64,000 bases of DNA from Limnothrix sp. BL-A-16 (lineage in GTDB: Bacteria; Cyanobacteriota; Cyanobacteriia; CACIAM-69d), in NCBI GenBank assembly GCA_041937175.2, contig CP166615.1, positions 704,001-768,000 on the forward strand, in the 5' to 3' direction. Shown in pieces: positions 38,233 through 45,218 of this stretch. The number at the start of each line of letters is the position of its first letter. The stretch's first letter is position 1. The notes beneath the pieces were generated by a model that was not told the origin of the DNA, searched no databases, and saw only the letters and a list, made by a program, of their open reading frames with translations. The position numbers and the translations under genes were made by a program.

Positions 38233-39552
38233 ATGTCTGAAGCATCTTCGGCCAGCGTTGCCCGTGCGGCAGCCTTCCAAAAAGCCTTCCAAAACTTGCA
38301 GCTTCAACCCCTGGTGGCCGATCAGGATTGGAAAAACTTTGGGGTGAGCTACAACGATCGCTGCTTGGCGGAATTGGAGCAGCTCGTGGAAGACAGCACC
38401 GAGCCAGACAATCAGTTCATCTTTGCGGGCCATCGGGGCTGCGGCAAATCCACGGTTTTGGCTGAATTTGCCAAGATGATGAGCGATCGCTATTTCACGG
38501 TCTTTTTCTCGATCGCGGATTTGATCGAAAGTTACTCGATCAATCACATCAATATTTTGTTCACCATGGCCGTGCAATTGATGGCCAAGGCTGAATCCGA
38601 GAAAATCGCGATTTCGCCCAGCAAGATCAAAGCCTTTCGCAATTGGTTTAAAACCCGCACCCACATCGAAGAAGCATCGGTCAGTGGTGAAGCAGAAGTG
38701 GGCTTTGATTTGTTCGGCTTGCTGAAAACCAAGCTGAAGACCGATGCCAAAATGCGCGAAGAAATCAAGACTGAATTTACAAAAGACCTTCGAGACTTAA
38801 TCGATACGATCAATAATATCGCCACAGAAATTCAGCTTGCTAGTGGTCGCAAAATTCTGGCGGTGATTGATGATCTAGACAAGCTGGAACTGACGCAGAT
38901 TGACGAGATTTTTTATCGGAACCTGAAAGCGCTGCTCGAACCCAACTTCACGGTGATTTATACGATCCCGATCGCCACAATTCGTGATACCCGGCTGAAG
39001 AGTCATCTGGAAACGGAAACTAGTACCAGTATTTACGTGATGCCCGTGTTGAAGCTGTTTGCCAAGCACGACAGTCATCGGGCCGATGGTCAGCCCGTGC
39101 CTGAAAAATTCAAGACCCTATTGCAAATTCTTCATCGCCGGGTTGCGCCAGATTTATTGGCTGAGGGAGTGGCTGAAACAATTGTGCTCTATAGCGGCGG
39201 AGTCAATCGCGAGTTGATTCGGATTGCCAAGGAATGTTGTCGATTAATGCGGGTAGAATTGCGAGTGCGACAACGGCGAGGCGAAGACATTAGCCAAACC
39301 CAAATCGATCAGAGCATTTTGCAAGAGGCGCTGGATTCGCTGCGTAATGAAATGTCGATTACGCTGGGCAAAACCGATCGCGAAATTTTGGAGCAAATCT
39401 ATTGCAACTACCAGCCGGATGATCCAAAAGCCGAAGAGTTCTTGGAGATGCTCCATGGTGTGTATGTGATCGAATATCGCAACAAAGAAAGCTGGTATGA
39501 TGTGCATCCTTTGCTAATAGATCAGTTGCGCATTGAGCAGCGAATTGGCTGA
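38233..39552 (+). CDS. P-loop NTPase (STAND/KAP/archaeal-ATPase-like)
   Basis: Walker A GHRGCGKS; Walker B LAVIDDLDK; SGGVNRE; C-terminal IEYRN..WYDVHPLL. Confidence 0.82.
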   Translation: MSEASSASVARAAAFQKAFQNLQLQPLVADQDWKNFGVSYNDRCLAELEQLVEDSTEPDNQFIFAGHRGCGKSTVLAEFAKMMSDRYFTVFFSIADLIESYSINHINILFTMAVQLMAKAESEKIAISPSKIKAFRNWFKTRTHIEEASVSGEAEVGFDLFGLLKTKLKTDAKMREEIKTEFTKDLRDLIDTINNIATEIQLASGRKILAVIDDLDKLELTQIDEIFYRNLKALLEPNFTVIYTIPIATIRDTRLKSHLETETSTSIYVMPVLKLFAKHDSHRADGQPVPEKFKTLLQILHRRVAPDLLAEGVAETIVLYSGGVNRELIRIAKECCRLMRVELRVRQRRGEDISQTQIDQSILQEALDSLRNEMSITLGKTDREILEQIYCNYQPDDPKAEEFLEMLHGVYVIEYRNKESWYDVHPLLIDQLRIEQRIG

Positions 39553-41621
39553 TGAATCCTGACGACCGGCCAGAAACAACCAACGGGAACGATCGCACCT
39601 ACGATCGCCTAATTGCCTCCTTGGAAATGGGGCTGGGGCAATTGCAGGTGCTGTTGGCCAGTTGCGACCACGATCGCCAACGACTGGCTTGGATCGATCG
39701 CTACGAAGCGGAACTGCAAGGCCAAGCCCAGCCGTTGCGAGTGCGGTTGGATGCGACGGAACCCAGCTTGCATCAGGCCGTGGCCCAAGCCTTGGCTGAT
39801 GTGACTGACCCCAGCTTGCCGATCGTGGTGACGGTGACGGGCAGCGAGGCACTGGGCTTGACGGGGCCGGAGCCGATCGAGAAATTCCTAGGCTATTTGC
39901 AGTGGACGCGGGAGGCGTTGCGGGAGTTTGCCTTGCCGATCGTGCTGTGGTTGCCGGAGCGGCTGTTGCCGGAGCTGCCCAGAAAGGCCCCGGACTTTTG
40001 GAGCTGGCGCGATGGTGTGTTTTTGTTCAAGGTGGTGACTCAGGCAGCGGTCAGCCCTTCCGAGATCATCCCGGAGCGGATCGAGCCGCGAGCCTCAGAC
40101 AGCAACGATGCAGGCAGCCTGTCGATCGCGGACTTGGAAGCTTCTTTGGCCGCCGCCGAAACCCAGCTTGGCCCCAACAGCCTGGCCGTGGCGGATTTGT
40201 TGCGACAGTTGGGCGATCGCTATGCCGATCGCTATCGAGCGGGTCGGGGACCCGAGGAAGCGATTCCCGCCGAAGCCTACTACCAACGGGCGATCGCGCT
40301 CTACGAAACCCACGAGCGATCGGCGGATCTGGCCACCAGCCTCAACAACTTGGCAGGACTCTACGAATCCCAGGGACGATACGAGGCAGCGGAACCCCTC
40401 TACCAGCGATCGCTGGAAATCTGGGAGCAAGGGCTGGGAGCCGACCATCCCCTCACCGCCACCAGCCTCAACAACTTGGCAGGACTCTACTCATCCCAGG
40501 GACGGTACGAGGCAGCGGAACCCCTCTACCGGCGATCGCTGGAAATCCGTGAGCGATTGCTGGGAGCCGACCATCCCGCCACCGCCACCAGCCTCAACAA
40601 CTTGGCAGAACTCTATCGATCTCAGGGACGGTACGAGGCAGCGGAACCCCTCTACCGGCGATCGCTGGAAATCTGGGAGCAAGGGCTGGGAGCCGACCAT
40701 CCCGACACCGCCACCAGCCTCAACAACTTGGCAAACCTCTACTCATCCCAGGGACGGTACGAAGCAGCGGAACCCCTCTACCGGCGATCGCTGGAAATCA
40801 AAGAGCAAGTGCTGGGAGCCGACCATCCCGACACCGCCACCAGCCTCAACAACTTGGCAGGACTCTACAATTCCCAGGGACGGTACGAGGCCGCGGAACC
40901 CCTCTACCGGCGAGCGCTAGAAATCCATGAGCGATTGCTGGGAGCCGACCATCCCGCCACCGCCACCAGCCTCAACAACTTGGCAGGACTCTATCGATCC
41001 CAGGGACGGTACGAAGCAGCGGAACCCCTCTACCGGCGATCGCTGGAAATCAAAGAGCAAGTGCTGGGAGCCGACCATCCCGACACCGCCACCAGCCTCA
41101 ACAACTTGGCAGGACTCTACAATTCCCAGGGACGGTACGAGGCCGCGGAACCCCTCTACCGGCGAGCGCTAGAAATCCATGAGCAAGTTCTAGGAGCCGA
41201 CCATCCCCACACCGCCACCAGCCTCAACAACTTGGCAGGACTCTACAAATCCCAGGGACGGTACGAGGCAGCAGAACCCCTCTACCGGCGATCCCTGGAA
41301 ATCCGTGAGCAAATGCTGGGAGCCGACCATCCCGACACCGCCAACAGCCTCAACAACTTGGCAAACCTCTATCGATCCCAGGGACGGTACGAGGCAGCGG
41401 AACCTCTCTACCTCCGCTGCTTGGAGATTTGTCTAGAAAAACTCGGTCAAGACCATCCCAACACCCAAACCGTCCAGAAAAATTTCCGCAGACTCGTGCA
41501 AGCCGTCCTCAAAGCCGGTGGCGCAAGCCTTGCGGAGCAATCTCGTGCCGCCGAACTTTCCGACCATCCCCTCACCCAAGCCATCCTGCAAGAACTCACC
41601 GCCCCACCCGAAACCCCGTAG
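39552..41621 (+). CDS. Protein with N-terminal alpha/beta domain and nine near-identical 42-aa TPR repeats
   Basis: TGATG overlap with the ATPase gene; repeat HPxTATSLNNLAxLYxSQGRYEAAEPLYRRSLEIxExxLGAD. Confidence 0.9.
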   Translation: MNPDDRPETTNGNDRTYDRLIASLEMGLGQLQVLLASCDHDRQRLAWIDRYEAELQGQAQPLRVRLDATEPSLHQAVAQALADVTDPSLPIVVTVTGSEALGLTGPEPIEKFLGYLQWTREALREFALPIVLWLPERLLPELPRKAPDFWSWRDGVFLFKVVTQAAVSPSEIIPERIEPRASDSNDAGSLSIADLEASLAAAETQLGPNSLAVADLLRQLGDRYADRYRAGRGPEEAIPAEAYYQRAIALYETHERSADLATSLNNLAGLYESQGRYEAAEPLYQRSLEIWEQGLGADHPLTATSLNNLAGLYSSQGRYEAAEPLYRRSLEIRERLLGADHPATATSLNNLAELYRSQGRYEAAEPLYRRSLEIWEQGLGADHPDTATSLNNLANLYSSQGRYEAAEPLYRRSLEIKEQVLGADHPDTATSLNNLAGLYNSQGRYEAAEPLYRRALEIHERLLGADHPATATSLNNLAGLYRSQGRYEAAEPLYRRSLEIKEQVLGADHPDTATSLNNLAGLYNSQGRYEAAEPLYRRALEIHEQVLGADHPHTATSLNNLAGLYKSQGRYEAAEPLYRRSLEIREQMLGADHPDTANSLNNLANLYRSQGRYEAAEPLYLRCLEICLEKLGQDHPNTQTVQKNFRRLVQAVLKAGGASLAEQSRAAELSDHPLTQAILQELTAPPETP
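40320..41460 (+). repeat. 126-bp coding tandem repeat, 9 units
   Basis: CAGCCTCAACAACTTGGCA recurs every 126 bp. Confidence 0.97.
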
Positions 41622-41839
41622 GGGAGCATCGCCATGTGTCCTCCGATATGCGAGATCTCCGAGGGGCAATTCGTCTCCAGCGATGAGGATCGCGCCCAAG
41701 CCAAACTCTGAAACCGTCAGTGGTTGAACACCGCTTCTCCCCCCGCTGCCACAGGGGAGGGAATCTGGCAGGAGGCGATTTTCACAGCGGTTGTTTTATA
41801 AGATGGCTGTCTGGTCGCTTCATTGACCCGCTCCTAGCC

Positions 41840-44045
41840 ATGCCCTATGAACCGCTGCACCACAAATATCGCCCCCAACGGTTTGCCGACTTGGTGGGCC
41901 AACAGGCGATCGCCCAAACGCTGACCAATGCGCTTCAGCAAAATCGAATCGCACCGGCTTACCTGTTTGCGGGGCCTCGGGGAACGGGCAAAACCTCCAG
42001 CGCCCGAATTTTGGCCAAGTCGTTGAACTGCCTGAGCAGCGAGGGCCCCACGGCGGAACCCTGCGGCCATTGCCAAACTTGCGTGGAAATTACGCAGGGG
42101 CGGGCGCTGGATGTGGTGGAAATTGACGCAGCCAGCAACACGGGTGTTGACAATATTCGAGAGCTGATTGAACGGGCCCAATTTGCCCCGGTGCAATGTC
42201 GCTACAAGGTTTATGTGCTGGACGAGGTGCATATGCTGTCGGGGGCGGCGTTCAATGCGCTGCTGAAAACCCTGGAGGAACCGCCGGCCCATGTGGTGTT
42301 TGTGTTGGCCACGACGGATCCGCAGCGGGTTTTGCCGACGATTATTTCTCGCTGTCAGCGGTTTGACTTCCGGCGGATTCCCCTGGTGGACATGGTGAGC
42401 CATTTGGGGACGATCGCCCAACAGGAGTCGATCGAGATTGTGCCGGAAGCGTTGACCCTGGTGGCCCAAATTGCGCAGGGGGGCTTGCGCGATGCGGAAA
42501 GCCTGCTGGATCAACTGAGCCTGGTTCCCACGGGGGTGACGGTGGAGGCCGTTTGGGATCTGGTGGGGGCTGTGCCGGAGCGGGATTTGCTGGCGTTGGT
42601 GTCCAGTTTGGCGGCGGGTGATGCGGAAGGGGCGGTGGACTGTTTGCGGCGGCTGATGGATCGGGGGCGAGAACCAACGATCGTGCTGCAAAATTTGGCG
42701 AGTTTCTATCGAGATCTGCTGATTGCGAAGACTGCGCCCGATCGGGGTGATTTGGTGGCCCTGACGGAGCCAACTTGGCAGCAACTCTGTGAATTTGCCC
42801 GCAGTCAGGAACTGAGCTGGATCTTGCATGGGCAGCAGTACCTCAAAACTAGCGAATCGCTGCTGAAAAACTCCACCCAGCCTCGGTTGTGGTTGGAGGT
42901 GACTTTGATGGGGCTGTTGCCGGGGGCGGTGGCTCCGGTGGGGGCTGTTGGGTCGGTGGCTCCGATGCCGCCTCGCCCGATCGCCCCGATCGCACTTCCG
43001 GCTCCTGTGCCGACCCCGATCGCGCCTGTTTCGGTTCCTGTGCCGGGGGATCCGCTCTCGGCTCTGTTGGCCCAGTTGGGGCTAGATCCGGGGGCGATCG
43101 CCCAATTTACCCAGGGCGTGACCCAATGGGCCCAAACGAATCCTGCTGCGCTGATGCAGTTGATCGGTCTGTTGCAATCCCTGGGAGGCGTGTCTCCAGC
43201 CCCGATCGCCACAAGCACCCCCACCGCCACAACGACTCCGGCGGCGATCGCTCCGGTGGCCGCTGTTGCTCCACCGGCCCCCGCGCCAACTCCGGTTCCG
43301 GAGCCGGCCCCGGTCAACGCTGGCCCCGATGAAACCTTTGCACCGGAACCCAGCCCGATCGCGCCGGTTCCCGCTTCTGCGGAGCTGGATCAACTGTGGC
43401 AAGCGATCTTGGTGCATGTGCAACCCCCGGCCACCAAGATGATGTTGTCGCAGATGGGGCAACTGCTGTCCTTTGATGGTCAAAACGCCGTGGTGGGGAT
43501 TCCGCCCAGTTGGGTCGCCAAGTTTGAGTCCCGCACCAAGGCGATCGAAACGGCCTTTCAGCAGCACCTGCAACGCAGCGTCGCGGTTGCGATTCGGGCC
43601 AATGTGGTGATGCCCCCCCAGACCAGCGCGCCCGCGTCCTTCCCAAAAAATCCACCCAGGGGAACGCCCCCCCGCCCCAGTCCCCGAACCCAGCCCGGAA
43701 CCCGAATCCGATTCCGACTACGGCCGCGAACCCAACGGCGGGCGGGTTTGGTGGGATCGCGACTAGGGTGGCTCCACCGCCCACCGCATCCCCAGCCGTG
43801 CTGCCCCAGGCCCCCGCTGCGAATCCCCTGCCGGCCTCGGGCCAGCCCCCGCGCCCGGCCCCGATCGTCCTGGGCGATCGCCCCAACCGCCCCCCGCCGC
43901 ATCACCCCAATCCGTTTCGCCCCCTTCGCCAGCGGGGCCCCCTTCGCCAGCGGGGCCCGATGACTTGGTGGCCCGCAGTGCCCGCAGCTTGGCGCAATTG
44001 TTCAACGGCGAAATTGTGCAGGTAGACGATCTCGACATGTTTTGA
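41840..44045 (+). CDS. dnaX: DNA polymerase III subunit gamma/tau; C-terminus apparently frameshifted
   Basis: MPYEPLHHKYRPQRF, GPRGTGKTS, Zn cysteines, DEVHMLS and SRC; main frame stops at 43963, while tail ARSLAQLFNGEIV..F* ends at 44045 in another frame. Confidence 0.9.
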
Positions 44046-44525: not shown

Positions 44526-45218
44526 CTACGCCACCCGTGGCCCTTCGGCAAAAGCTTGGGCAACTTGGCGATCGGTCGCATCCACCACCACTCCGATGAT
44601 TGGGCCCACAGCTCCGCCCACACGAATCAACACATCCTTCACATCGGGACTGCCAAAACCCACAATCCGCGAATAGTCGAGGGAGTTATCAAAAAATAGG
44701 TCTACCTGGCGACTGATCGCAATGAAATCTCCACCGTTGAAGTCAAAATCCACAATTACATCGGCGTTCGCAATGGTTGTGGTGGCATCATCAACCGCCA
44801 GGACAAAGGTATCGCGCCCAGTGCCGCCGATCAGGGTGTCGATGCCCAGGTCGCCAGCCAGAAAATCATCTCCCTCCTGGCCGTAGAGAATATCGTTGTC
44901 GCGGCCGCCACGGAGGGTGTCGCGTCCTGCGCCGCCTTCTAGCTGGTCGTTGCCCAGGTTGCCCGTCAGCAGGTCATCCCCATCACGACCGATCACAAAA
45001 TCAAAACCCTGGCCCCCAAAGAGCACATCGCTGCCCTCGTTGCCGATCAGGGTGTCGTTGTCGCTATTGCCATAGAGGGTGTCGTTGTCGCTGGAACCGT
45101 TGATGTAATCGTTGCCGGCGAGGGCCCGCACACCCAGGCGGCCTTGCTGGCCGGCTGCGAGGGAGATGGTTTCGCTGTTGTTGGTGAGATCGAGATAGTC
45201 AATATCTGTCCGAGCCAT
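44526..45218 (-). CDS. RTX/hemolysin-type calcium-binding repeat protein
   Basis: Consecutive GGxGxDxL nonapeptides; ADVIVDF motif. Confidence 0.88.

Follow-up and report, generated by a model that had tools for sequence, protein, structure and literature searches.

Here we describe a pair of adjacent genes in a 64,000-nt stretch of the genome of the cyanobacterium Limnothrix sp. BL-A-16 (contig CP166615.1, positions 704,001 to 768,000). This whole stretch is called the window, and positions are counted from its first letter. Both genes lie on the forward strand, flanked by dnaX and a gene for a protein with GH57 and DUF3536 domains. Gene 1 (38233..39552) is an open reading frame (ORF) of 439 aa and encodes a soluble P-loop ATPase resembling KAP, ORC/Cdc6 and STAND (signal transduction ATPase with numerous domains) proteins. 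Gene 2 (39552..41621), an ORF of 689 aa, encodes a putative pseudo-ATPase domain, a linker and an array of tetratricopeptide repeats (TPRs). The stop codon of the first gene and the start codon of the second share the letters TGATG (39550..39554), an overlap from which the two are predicted to be translationally coupled. An earlier note on this DNA had placed the genes, their junction and their flanks correctly, and had proposed a split system akin to nucleotide-binding leucine-rich repeat (NLR) proteins, in which an active and an inactive NTPase form a complex with a variable sensor. We find the pair to be a conserved, self-contained two-gene cassette that is widespread in the sampled genomes of the cyanobacterial phylum.

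The catalytic motifs of gene 1 are intact, as the earlier note had read them. In an alignment of gene 1 with 36 homologs (37 rows, also used for the structure model), G66, H67, G69, G71, K72, S73 and T74 of the Walker A motif GHRGCGKST (residues 66-74; 38428..38454) are invariant (37/37 rows). The same is true of D213 and D216 of the Walker B motif VIDDLD, which lies in the strand AVIDDLDK (residues 209-216; 38857..38880), and of R303 and G322-G323. S321, R326 and E327 are nearly invariant (at least 90%) and complete, with the two glycines, the motif SGG-x-x-RE (residues 321-327; 39193..39213). This motif starts the lid helix, falls within the predicted interface with gene 2, and is presumably 'sensor 2'-like, by comparison with motifs of Cdc6/Orc1. 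Among Pfam models, KAP_NTPase (PF07693) exceeds its gathering cut-off (32.9 bits against 20; E 5.2e-8; profile positions 10-187 of 293). AAA_16, ATPase_2 and NACHT fall below theirs (for NACHT, E 0.084 and 13.1 bits against 26.7), NB-ARC and nSTAND models give no match at E up to 0.1, and the matches to TniB and IstB cover the P-loop only (E 0.047-0.05). Transmembrane helices inserted in the P-loop NTPase domain are reportedly a hallmark of the KAP NTPases that Aravind et al. 2004 described. The highest 19-residue Kyte-Doolittle mean in gene 1 is 0.98 and its insert (residues 95-206) is charged; therefore gene 1 has no transmembrane segment and lacks this membrane insert.

Structurally, gene 1 is modelled with high confidence (predicted local distance difference test, pLDDT, 90.7). 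Over its length (38233..39552), three N-terminal helices are followed by a P-loop core in which a long helical insert separates Walker A from Walker B, by a helical lid, and by a C-terminal winged-helix-like unit (residues 380-434; 39370..39534), predicted to consist of helices 380-392, 401-408 and 426-434 with strands 412-416 and 420-424. The possible winged-helix end of the earlier note is thereby supported at the level of the model. The top fold match of the predicted structure is PAB2304, an archaeal Walker-type ATPase (VIA Z 15.9; 302 residues aligned, residues 20-434). Further matches are Cdc6/Orc1 (VIA Z 15.9 and 15.6; Foldseek E 1.5e-7), TnsC (Z 15.4), SSO1545 (Z 13.6; 304 aligned), the nucleotide-binding oligomerization domains of plant NLRs (Z 12.8-13.3), MalT (Z 10.7) and Avs5 (Z 10.5), and full-length alignments to PAB2304, SSO1545 and Cdc6/Orc1 extend to residues 433-439. 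Both PAB2304 and SSO1545 were reportedly placed in the MNS clade by Leipe et al. 2004. With intact Walker A and B motifs and, in the model, a lid and a winged helix after the core, gene 1 has the composition of a STAND module and appears to be an active ATP switch of the STAND/ORC type.

The first part of gene 2 is a domain of about 150 aa, here named N-dom (residues 10-163; 39579..40040), through which gene 2 is predicted to dock onto gene 1. Next comes a linker (residues 164-240; 40041..40271) that is modelled with low confidence (pLDDT below 50 at 164-189) and then as one helix (192-206). No Pfam family is matched by residues 1-214 at a threshold as loose as E 10, Pfam scans of gene 2 yield TPR families only and no helix-turn-helix (HTH), and searches of PDB sequences with profiles of both proteins gave P-loop-level or insignificant matches only, that is, no solved relative by sequence. 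The N-dom model comprises five successive strand-helix units (pLDDT 87-96 over the block). Foldseek relates it to chains of ORC2 and ORC3, the AAA+-like domains of Sir3 and Rif2, and Avs4 (E 4e-5 to 1e-3), including A. pernix ORC2 (E 4.1e-5) and human ORC2/ORC3. AAA+-type ATPases make up nearly all of the 50 VIA rows listed, among them TnsC (Z 10.6; 148 aligned, root-mean-square deviation 3.5) and Cdc6/Orc1 (Z 10.5). The AAA+-like chains of ORC2, ORC3, Sir3 and Rif2 are catalytically inactive. In an alignment of 151 N-dom rows, the position of the P-loop is taken by a short loop, (A/V)-C-D-x (C38 in 0.93 of rows, D39 in 0.81), and a GK[ST]-like string near it occurs in a single row (1/151), where it precedes strand 1. 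The AAA+-like fold, as modelled, and the missing P-loop therefore bear out the 'degenerate NTPase' reading that the earlier note had drawn from alternating strands and helices, and N-dom is best modelled as a Walker-A-less AAA+ core with a Cys-Asp loop in place of the P-loop, a putative pseudo-ATPase. Its conserved motifs are C38-D39, P71-S72-L73, G97-x-E99, Q117-W-T-R-E121, W133 and D148-F-W-S-W-R153. As a separate observation, the near-invariant Cys at the P-loop position (C38-D39, 39663-39668) and a Gly-x-Glu/Asp at the Walker B position (G97-x-E99, 39840-39848) make up a conserved pocket, outside the predicted interface list, in a domain unable to bind nucleoside triphosphates in the usual way.

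The remainder of gene 2 is dominated by the TPRs that the earlier note had seen there. They form a tandem array of 126-nt (42-aa) units (40332..41412), nine by protein register (residues 260-637). Tandem Repeats Finder counts 8.6 copies with 90% matches (score 1711), and Pfam resolves nine TPR_12/TPR_10 units, with TPR_12 at E 9.5e-178 in nine stretches and TPR_MalT at E 1.9e-26. Across the nine units, 30 of the 42 columns carry no amino-acid change at a synonymous divergence (dS) of 0.21. Six columns (10, 13, 32, 34, 35 and 42) hold most of the changes, with a nonsynonymous divergence (dN) of 0.94, a contrast that is circular, and thus descriptive, because the columns were chosen by their variability. 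These few hypervariable positions agree with the variable sensor proposed in the earlier note. DNA contigs from four lake or hot-spring metagenome runs span the junction of the two genes at about 98% identity and break inside the TPR array. One X4 contig, a single one, omits 769 nt of the array (window 40672-41442) with 13 other letters between, about six units fewer. The closest gene 2 ortholog (about 70% identity; L001 7320-8871, and L038 4584-5717 in genome G220) is only 378 aa long, and the ORF after it, of 222 aa, encodes TPRs in a different frame, the result of either a frameshift or an assembly error within the repeat array.

Relatives of both proteins are numerous. Gene 1 has 775 at E <= 0.001 among 8000 scored candidates, and the hosts of those that are named are cyanobacteria, including Nostoc, Dolichospermum, Crocosphaera, Microcystis and Pseudanabaena. 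N-dom has 580 in a word-indexed search and at least 712 representative clusters in an exhaustive one; its nearest ESM Atlas clusters are unnamed and without a Pfam family. In 147 of the best 150 N-dom matches the match begins within the first 35 residues of the protein. Across 301 genomes sampled from the phylum, N-dom was found in 81 and the ATPase in 80, with a near-identical pattern per family: both occur in 34/35 genomes of family f7, 14/14 of f3 and 8/18 of f8, and in none of f18 (0/13) or f30 (0/8), f15 being the sole family to differ among the 30 listed by name (N-dom 3/3 vs ATPase 2/3). Genomes may hold multiple copies, with up to 11 N-dom matches and with ATPase matches of which no more than five per genome were scored.

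The partner proteins fall into two classes, both of which occur within single genomes. Class I partners consist of N-dom and a TPR array, as in the window, with ORF lengths of 334-977 aa, a range in keeping with a changing number of repeats. Class II partners have the layout N-dom-TPR-nSTAND1-WD40, measure about 1650-2050 aa and can have an upstream ATPase of their own. The class I pair is adjacent in all 21 loci (20 fetched plus the window), with overlapping or nearly abutting junctions recurring. More generally, of the 150 N-dom matches listed, 109 directly follow a listed ATPase that is encoded on the same strand, and the stretches matched lie a median of 31 nt apart. Sorted by protein size, again among the matches listed, this holds for 49/55 N-dom proteins of 251-1000 aa, 3/7 of 1001-1500 aa, 57/82 of more than 1500 aa and 0/6 of 250 aa or less. 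When 20 long, class-II-like N-dom genes that had seemed unpaired were re-examined, 11 proved to have an upstream ATPase. A fused ATPase and N-dom protein was found in none of 7998 scored candidates of 770-2195 aa, which is weak evidence. The neighbourhood and presence/absence survey that the earlier note had proposed thus yields families that co-occur and, in class I, stand side by side.

Within Limnothrix sp. BL-A-16 itself, all three ATPase paralogs are followed by an N-dom gene. The second pair (B) combines a 433-aa ATPase with a 952-aa N-dom-TPR protein, and the third (C) a 444-aa ATPase with an N-dom that stands alone in a protein of 163 aa and was identified by comparing profiles (probability 98.4%, E 5.6e-15). 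Two more N-dom proteins, one of 1704 aa (N-dom-TPR-nSTAND1-WD40) and one of 616 aa, have no nearby ATPase match at E <= 0.001. The third pair (G000:C1:863462-871963, L012) was also seen to lie directly upstream of a 2071-aa Ser/Thr kinase-AAA_16-GAF-PAS-histidine kinase protein. Elsewhere, some ATPase orthologs contain a single in-frame stop (G228:C1:1267505-1268800, G156:C1:6177431-6178702, G284:C219:6321-7604 and others) and one (L026 5803-7107) is split into ORFs of 288 and 125 aa; in some genomes the module appears to be undergoing decay. Three separate contigs carry the pair, GH57 and dnaX in one genome of the same family, and the flanks of a 78%-identical locus (L001) share nothing with those of the window. 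The pair is accessory: patchy, multi-copy, not syntenic and not core. The earlier note had named three outcomes that would speak against its proposal, namely an N-terminal domain without a P-loop-like fold, genes that do not co-occur elsewhere, and a core, invariant pair. In each case the opposite was found, the first at the level of predicted structure.

Structure prediction extends to the complex. Gene 1 with ATP and N-dom reaches an interface score (ipSAE) of 0.88, 0.88 and 0.87 in three runs, and three controls all score 0.00. Between 96 and 99 contacts are predicted, the runs agree in at least 92% of them, and the pLDDT of the partner is 87. In a benchmark, the ipSAE mark was reached by 116/157 solved complexes and 2/215 mismatched pairs, counts that are only roughly valid here because our own alignments were used and ATP was included. 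On the N-dom side, the predicted interface comprises residues 15-33, 72-75, 114-124 and 139-158, its most conserved motifs in the 151 rows. On the side of gene 1 it takes in the conserved N-terminal helix (15-25), the P-loop (68-69), Walker B (214-219), the lid helix after SGG-x-x-RE (326-344, including 326, 330 and 333-344) and part of the winged helix (405-411). Since this interface lies at the P-loop, Walker B and lid of gene 1, N-dom would be placed over the nucleotide cleft. The hetero-complex of an active and an inactive NTPase, put forward in the earlier note, is thus upheld by prediction.

Both members of the pair have diverged along with the partner class. In a tree of the ATPases, a single branch divides the rows by partner class, with a support of 100 in the Shimodaira-Hasegawa-like approximate likelihood ratio test (quick IQ-TREE, 39 rows), and the N-dom tree splits in the same way with a support of 0.949 (FastTree, 38 rows). 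The ATPase tree holds 22 class I rows, including L017, a duplicate of L024 that was left out of the N-dom tree and of the motif comparison. Characteristic motifs are LQWTRE and APDFWSWR in class I, and NQVR(E/D) and APD(F/L)xSWA in class II. C38, G97, R120, W133, D148 and W152 of N-dom are present in almost every row of all groups (0.91-1.00), R120, D148 and W152 being retained in all three groups of a comparison of N-doms with and without an upstream ATPase. The ATPase motifs are likewise shared: Walker A GK-S-T is retained in 18/20 class I rows (two are gapped) and 15/15 class II rows, D213 in 20/20 and 15/15, and R326 in 35/35 rows of both classes, and D214 is replaced by N in class II. At one predicted contact, between R330 of the ATPase and R153 of N-dom, both positions are Arg in class I (20/20 each) and in pair B of this genome. 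In class II, R330 is Arg in 5/15 and R153 in 0/15, and pair C has G and T, a co-variation whose support is modest because it stems from about two independent events.

Taken together, the conserved unit is the ATPase with N-dom, and the part after N-dom varies. Since N-dom also heads complete TPR-nSTAND1-WD40 proteins that carry an NTPase of their own, it is best read as an adaptor tying a free-standing ATPase to a repeat sensor. For the same reason the 'split NLR' of the earlier note is only partly right: its two-chain layout of an active and a dead NTPase stands, and the idea of simply one NLR divided into two does not, as N-doms with their own upstream ATPase also head complete proteins. The explanation we prefer, with moderate confidence, is a translationally coupled module of an active ATPase and a docking pseudo-ATPase/TPR sensor, most likely serving as a conflict or non-self sensing switch. 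By its QWTRE and DFWSWR motifs, N-dom would dock onto gene 1, covering the nucleotide cleft, to form a heterodimer, and docking would couple the nucleotide state of the ATPase to whatever the nine-unit TPR array binds. A ligand on the TPR surface could then alter or release docking, allowing the ATPase to exchange nucleotide and assemble. In the short form seen in the window, the TPR array would gate the ATPase directly, and the leading candidate for the output is the ATPase itself, by assembly or by DNA binding through its winged helix. A conflict role appears the most likely because the module is multi-copy, patchy, mobile and not syntenic with a genome of the same family, because the GC content of gene 1 is below that of the flanks, because the repeats resemble those of other variable sensors, and because class II carries nSTAND1, a family whose definition comes from predicted conflict systems (Kaur et al. 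2021; PMC8195603). By this analogy, the pair is probably used in conflicts with invaders.

Several observations weigh against this explanation. The neighbours in the window are housekeeping genes. Neither protein contains an effector domain: nuclease, TIR and caspase domains are absent from both in Pfam, PADLOC and NCBIfam scans, as the earlier note had said for these three effectors. No system model of PADLOC-DB 2.0 fits the pair and NCBIfam gives no equivalog match; the best PADLOC match of gene 1 is VakA, and a partial one (E 3.5e-8, residues 62-164 only), followed by PtuA, mad8 and PifA (E 6e-4 to 1e-2), and gene 2 meets a generic TPR model only. The role of immune sensor, as the earlier note worded it, therefore went unsupported by this comparison and rests on analogy. 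Nor is there a conserved third gene, as no flank family, a TPR-repeat cluster aside, occurs in more than five of the 21 loci (185 ORFs). Adjacency is not obligatory, since the 3.5 kb upstream of 9 of the 20 re-examined class-II-like N-dom genes hold no ATPase and 41 of 150 ATPases, among the matches listed, are not followed by a listed N-dom. The complex is predicted, and solved structures offer many contacts between AAA+ domains, so that memory of this fold class may have entered the prediction. Adjacent genes share their history anyway, which makes co-divergence expected in part, and the few events behind the arginine co-variation and the choice of the variable TPR columns count on the same side. 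Lastly, the precomputed families of one relative, P0188, include AraC-type HTHs, which suggests that some members at least control transcription.

Building on the preferred explanation, we also put forward, tentatively and with more doubt than conviction, that N-dom is a new kind of NLR adaptor. In the long forms, a sensing STAND protein might drive a separate helper or executioner ATPase in a two-tier NTPase cascade, by analogy with the sensor/helper NLR pairs of plants, and the pair in the window would be its minimal version.

Control of transcription is also the substance of a rival explanation. The pair could be a split MalT/AfsR-like signal-transduction ATPase in which the TPRs sense a metabolite or protein, the ATPase and N-dom form the switch, and the winged helix or a partner HTH binds DNA. 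The modelled winged helix of gene 1, its full-length alignment to Cdc6/Orc1, which has been solved bound to origin DNA, the MalT-type matches of fold and repeats, and P0188 would all agree with this. Such a regulator is nevertheless hard to square with several copies per genome at non-syntenic locations, near-identical TPR units with hypervariable positions, class II nSTAND1-WD40 partners and a gene 2 that show no HTH, and the lack of a conserved target gene beside the pair. We consider it unlikely. We give a similarly low chance to gene 1 being an AAA+-type factor dedicated to chaperoning or assembling large TPR/WD40 scaffolds, with N-dom a mere handle and a housekeeping or developmental role. 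In its favour, the ATPase stands upstream of N-dom proteins whatever their C-terminal part (TPR, TPR-nSTAND1-WD40 or N-dom alone), docking is predicted at the nucleotide cleft, MoxR-vWA pairs have been described as chaperone/co-chaperone thresholding systems (PMC7159879), and the module is frequent in some families (f7, f3). However, the best folds of gene 1 are initiators, transposition ATPases and STAND-type switches, with Clp/Hsp100-type rows lower (Z 10-11); the module was not found in many families (such as f18 and f30) and in fewer than half of the genomes of f8; and the in-frame stops of some copies make it dispensable. A remnant of a mobile element, with a TnsC/MuB/IstB-like transposition ATPase and its regulator, is very improbable despite TnsC and MuB among the top fold matches of both proteins, a gene 1 GC content below that of the flanks and the non-syntenic location, since the TniB and IstB matches are confined to the P-loop, the partner is a repeat protein, and no transposase or integrase family recurs among the 185 ORFs of the 21 loci.

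Turning to the surroundings of the pair, a RadC protein and a GNAT protein are encoded farther upstream of it in the window. The GC content of gene 1 is 0.484 (0.575 at third codon positions, GC3) and that of the N-dom part 0.609 (GC3 0.755), compared with 0.60-0.64 in the flanks and a genome mean of 0.552. The difference in GC3 between gene 1 and the N-dom part (window 38233-40040; 0.575 vs 0.755) is a curiosity in two genes that overlap. Promoter and terminator scans gave counts at chance level (2 vs 1.8 expected, and 3 vs 4.5 expected). The dnaX ORF is listed from a GTG at 41720, and the conserved protein starts near an ATG at 41840; its C-terminal part (43000-43963) is Pro/Ala-rich, with a GC content of up to 0.68. 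On the reverse strand, 44526-45218 encodes a 230-aa protein with four stretches of RTX calcium-binding nonapeptide repeats. Among the class I loci, the commonest flank family apart from the TPR cluster is a Ser/Thr kinase, found in 5/21 loci of two genera at a distance of no more than two genes from the pair. Of the recurrent flank clusters, five were scanned: this kinase, TPR proteins, a PBP-like protein, PsiE and an NB-ARC-TPR protein. At L029 (8070-10223; G236:C12), a separate NB-ARC-TPR_10/TPR_12 protein is encoded two genes downstream of a class I pair, and a partial protein, P0227, has N-dom fused to NB-ARC and TPRs.

As a rule, an NLR-like protein of bacteria unites sensor, switch and effector in one chain. 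In the module described here, the live ATPase and the sensor are kept as two genes across the phylum, joined by what looks like a dead copy of the ATPase fold, and the N-dom family, with at least 712 representative clusters, has no Pfam model. If the predicted docking is true, two soluble proteins with few conserved contact residues would offer a simple model for pseudo-ATPase control of STAND/ORC-type switches, and docking might explain the N-terminus of many large cyanobacterial nSTAND1-WD40 proteins. Should the module serve defence or allorecognition, it would have a new kind of output, because no effector is recognisable. The ATPase/N-dom pair is not described in the literature searched, subscription papers, for example on STAND clades, being outside its scope. 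For two Nostoc strains, the source data of fig. 2 in PMC8195603 show 'AAA_22 -> TPR+nSTAND1+BetaPropeller' in the neighbourhood of caspase-bDLD3 genes, without annotation of the N-terminal domain. As far as the cited parts of that paper and the literature searched go, the genes have therefore been seen, and the domain and the pairing are undescribed.

Compared with known systems, gene 1 shares with the KAP family (PF07693) a score above the gathering cut-off and a helical insert between Walker A and Walker B, without the transmembrane helices. Single-chain NLR-like STAND proteins (Avs, bNACHT, NB-ARC-TPR and nSTAND1-WD40) resemble gene 1 in core, lid and winged helix and gene 2 in its C-terminal repeat sensor, and the class II partners are themselves nSTAND1-WD40 proteins. 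Unlike them, the pair places sensor and live NTPase on two chains that would be linked through a pseudo-ATPase adaptor, and has no N-terminal enzymatic effector. ORC/Cdc6 and clamp-loader assemblies offer another likeness, as both gene 1 and N-dom match ORC/Cdc6 subunits and a live and a dead AAA+ core are paired at a nucleotide site, here by prediction. The differences are that sequence similarity to ORC/Cdc6 goes no further than the P-loop, that N-dom lacks its own lid and winged helix, that the module is fused to repeat sensors, and that nothing ties it to replication.

Closer still are systems built on inactive STAND modules. In the ternary iSTAND and iSTAND2 systems, which show enrichment in multicellular bacteria including cyanobacteria, an inactive STAND-type module is, as in our pair, the constant and probably sensing part (PMC7159879; PMC8195603). 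iSTAND systems are defined by a gene pair of a MoxR AAA+ ATPase and a vWA protein together with effectors (PMC7159879), whereas the active partner here is a STAND/ORC-like ATPase. The pair does not fit iSTAND, with no linked MoxR or vWA gene among the recurrent flank clusters scanned from the 21 loci and GH57 and dnaX flanking the pair in the window. Of the systems described so far, the proteobacterial nSTAND2 operon of two genes is the nearest analogue (Kaur, Iyer, Burroughs and Aravind, eLife 2021; PMC8195603). There, the first gene is given as '??+STAND+wHTH', with a winged HTH (wHTH); in the second, TPRs follow a STAND module whose NTP-binding motifs are eroded; active and inactive NTPase are predicted by the authors to form a hetero-multimer; and the source data name the family 'MNS-like' (PMC8195603). 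Our pair has the same order of an upstream, apparently active STAND+wHTH gene and a downstream inactive module with TPRs, a likeness of layout only. The second nSTAND2 proteins carry a wHTH, TPRs and a HEPN (or GT4) effector in rows from Proteobacteria (PMC8195603), whereas the dead module here is a core of about 150 aa, Pfam finds no wHTH or effector beside it, and the hosts are cyanobacteria. Thus the module is real, conserved and uncharacterised, a variant of the theme of active/inactive STAND pairs that is built around an undescribed putative pseudo-ATPase domain.

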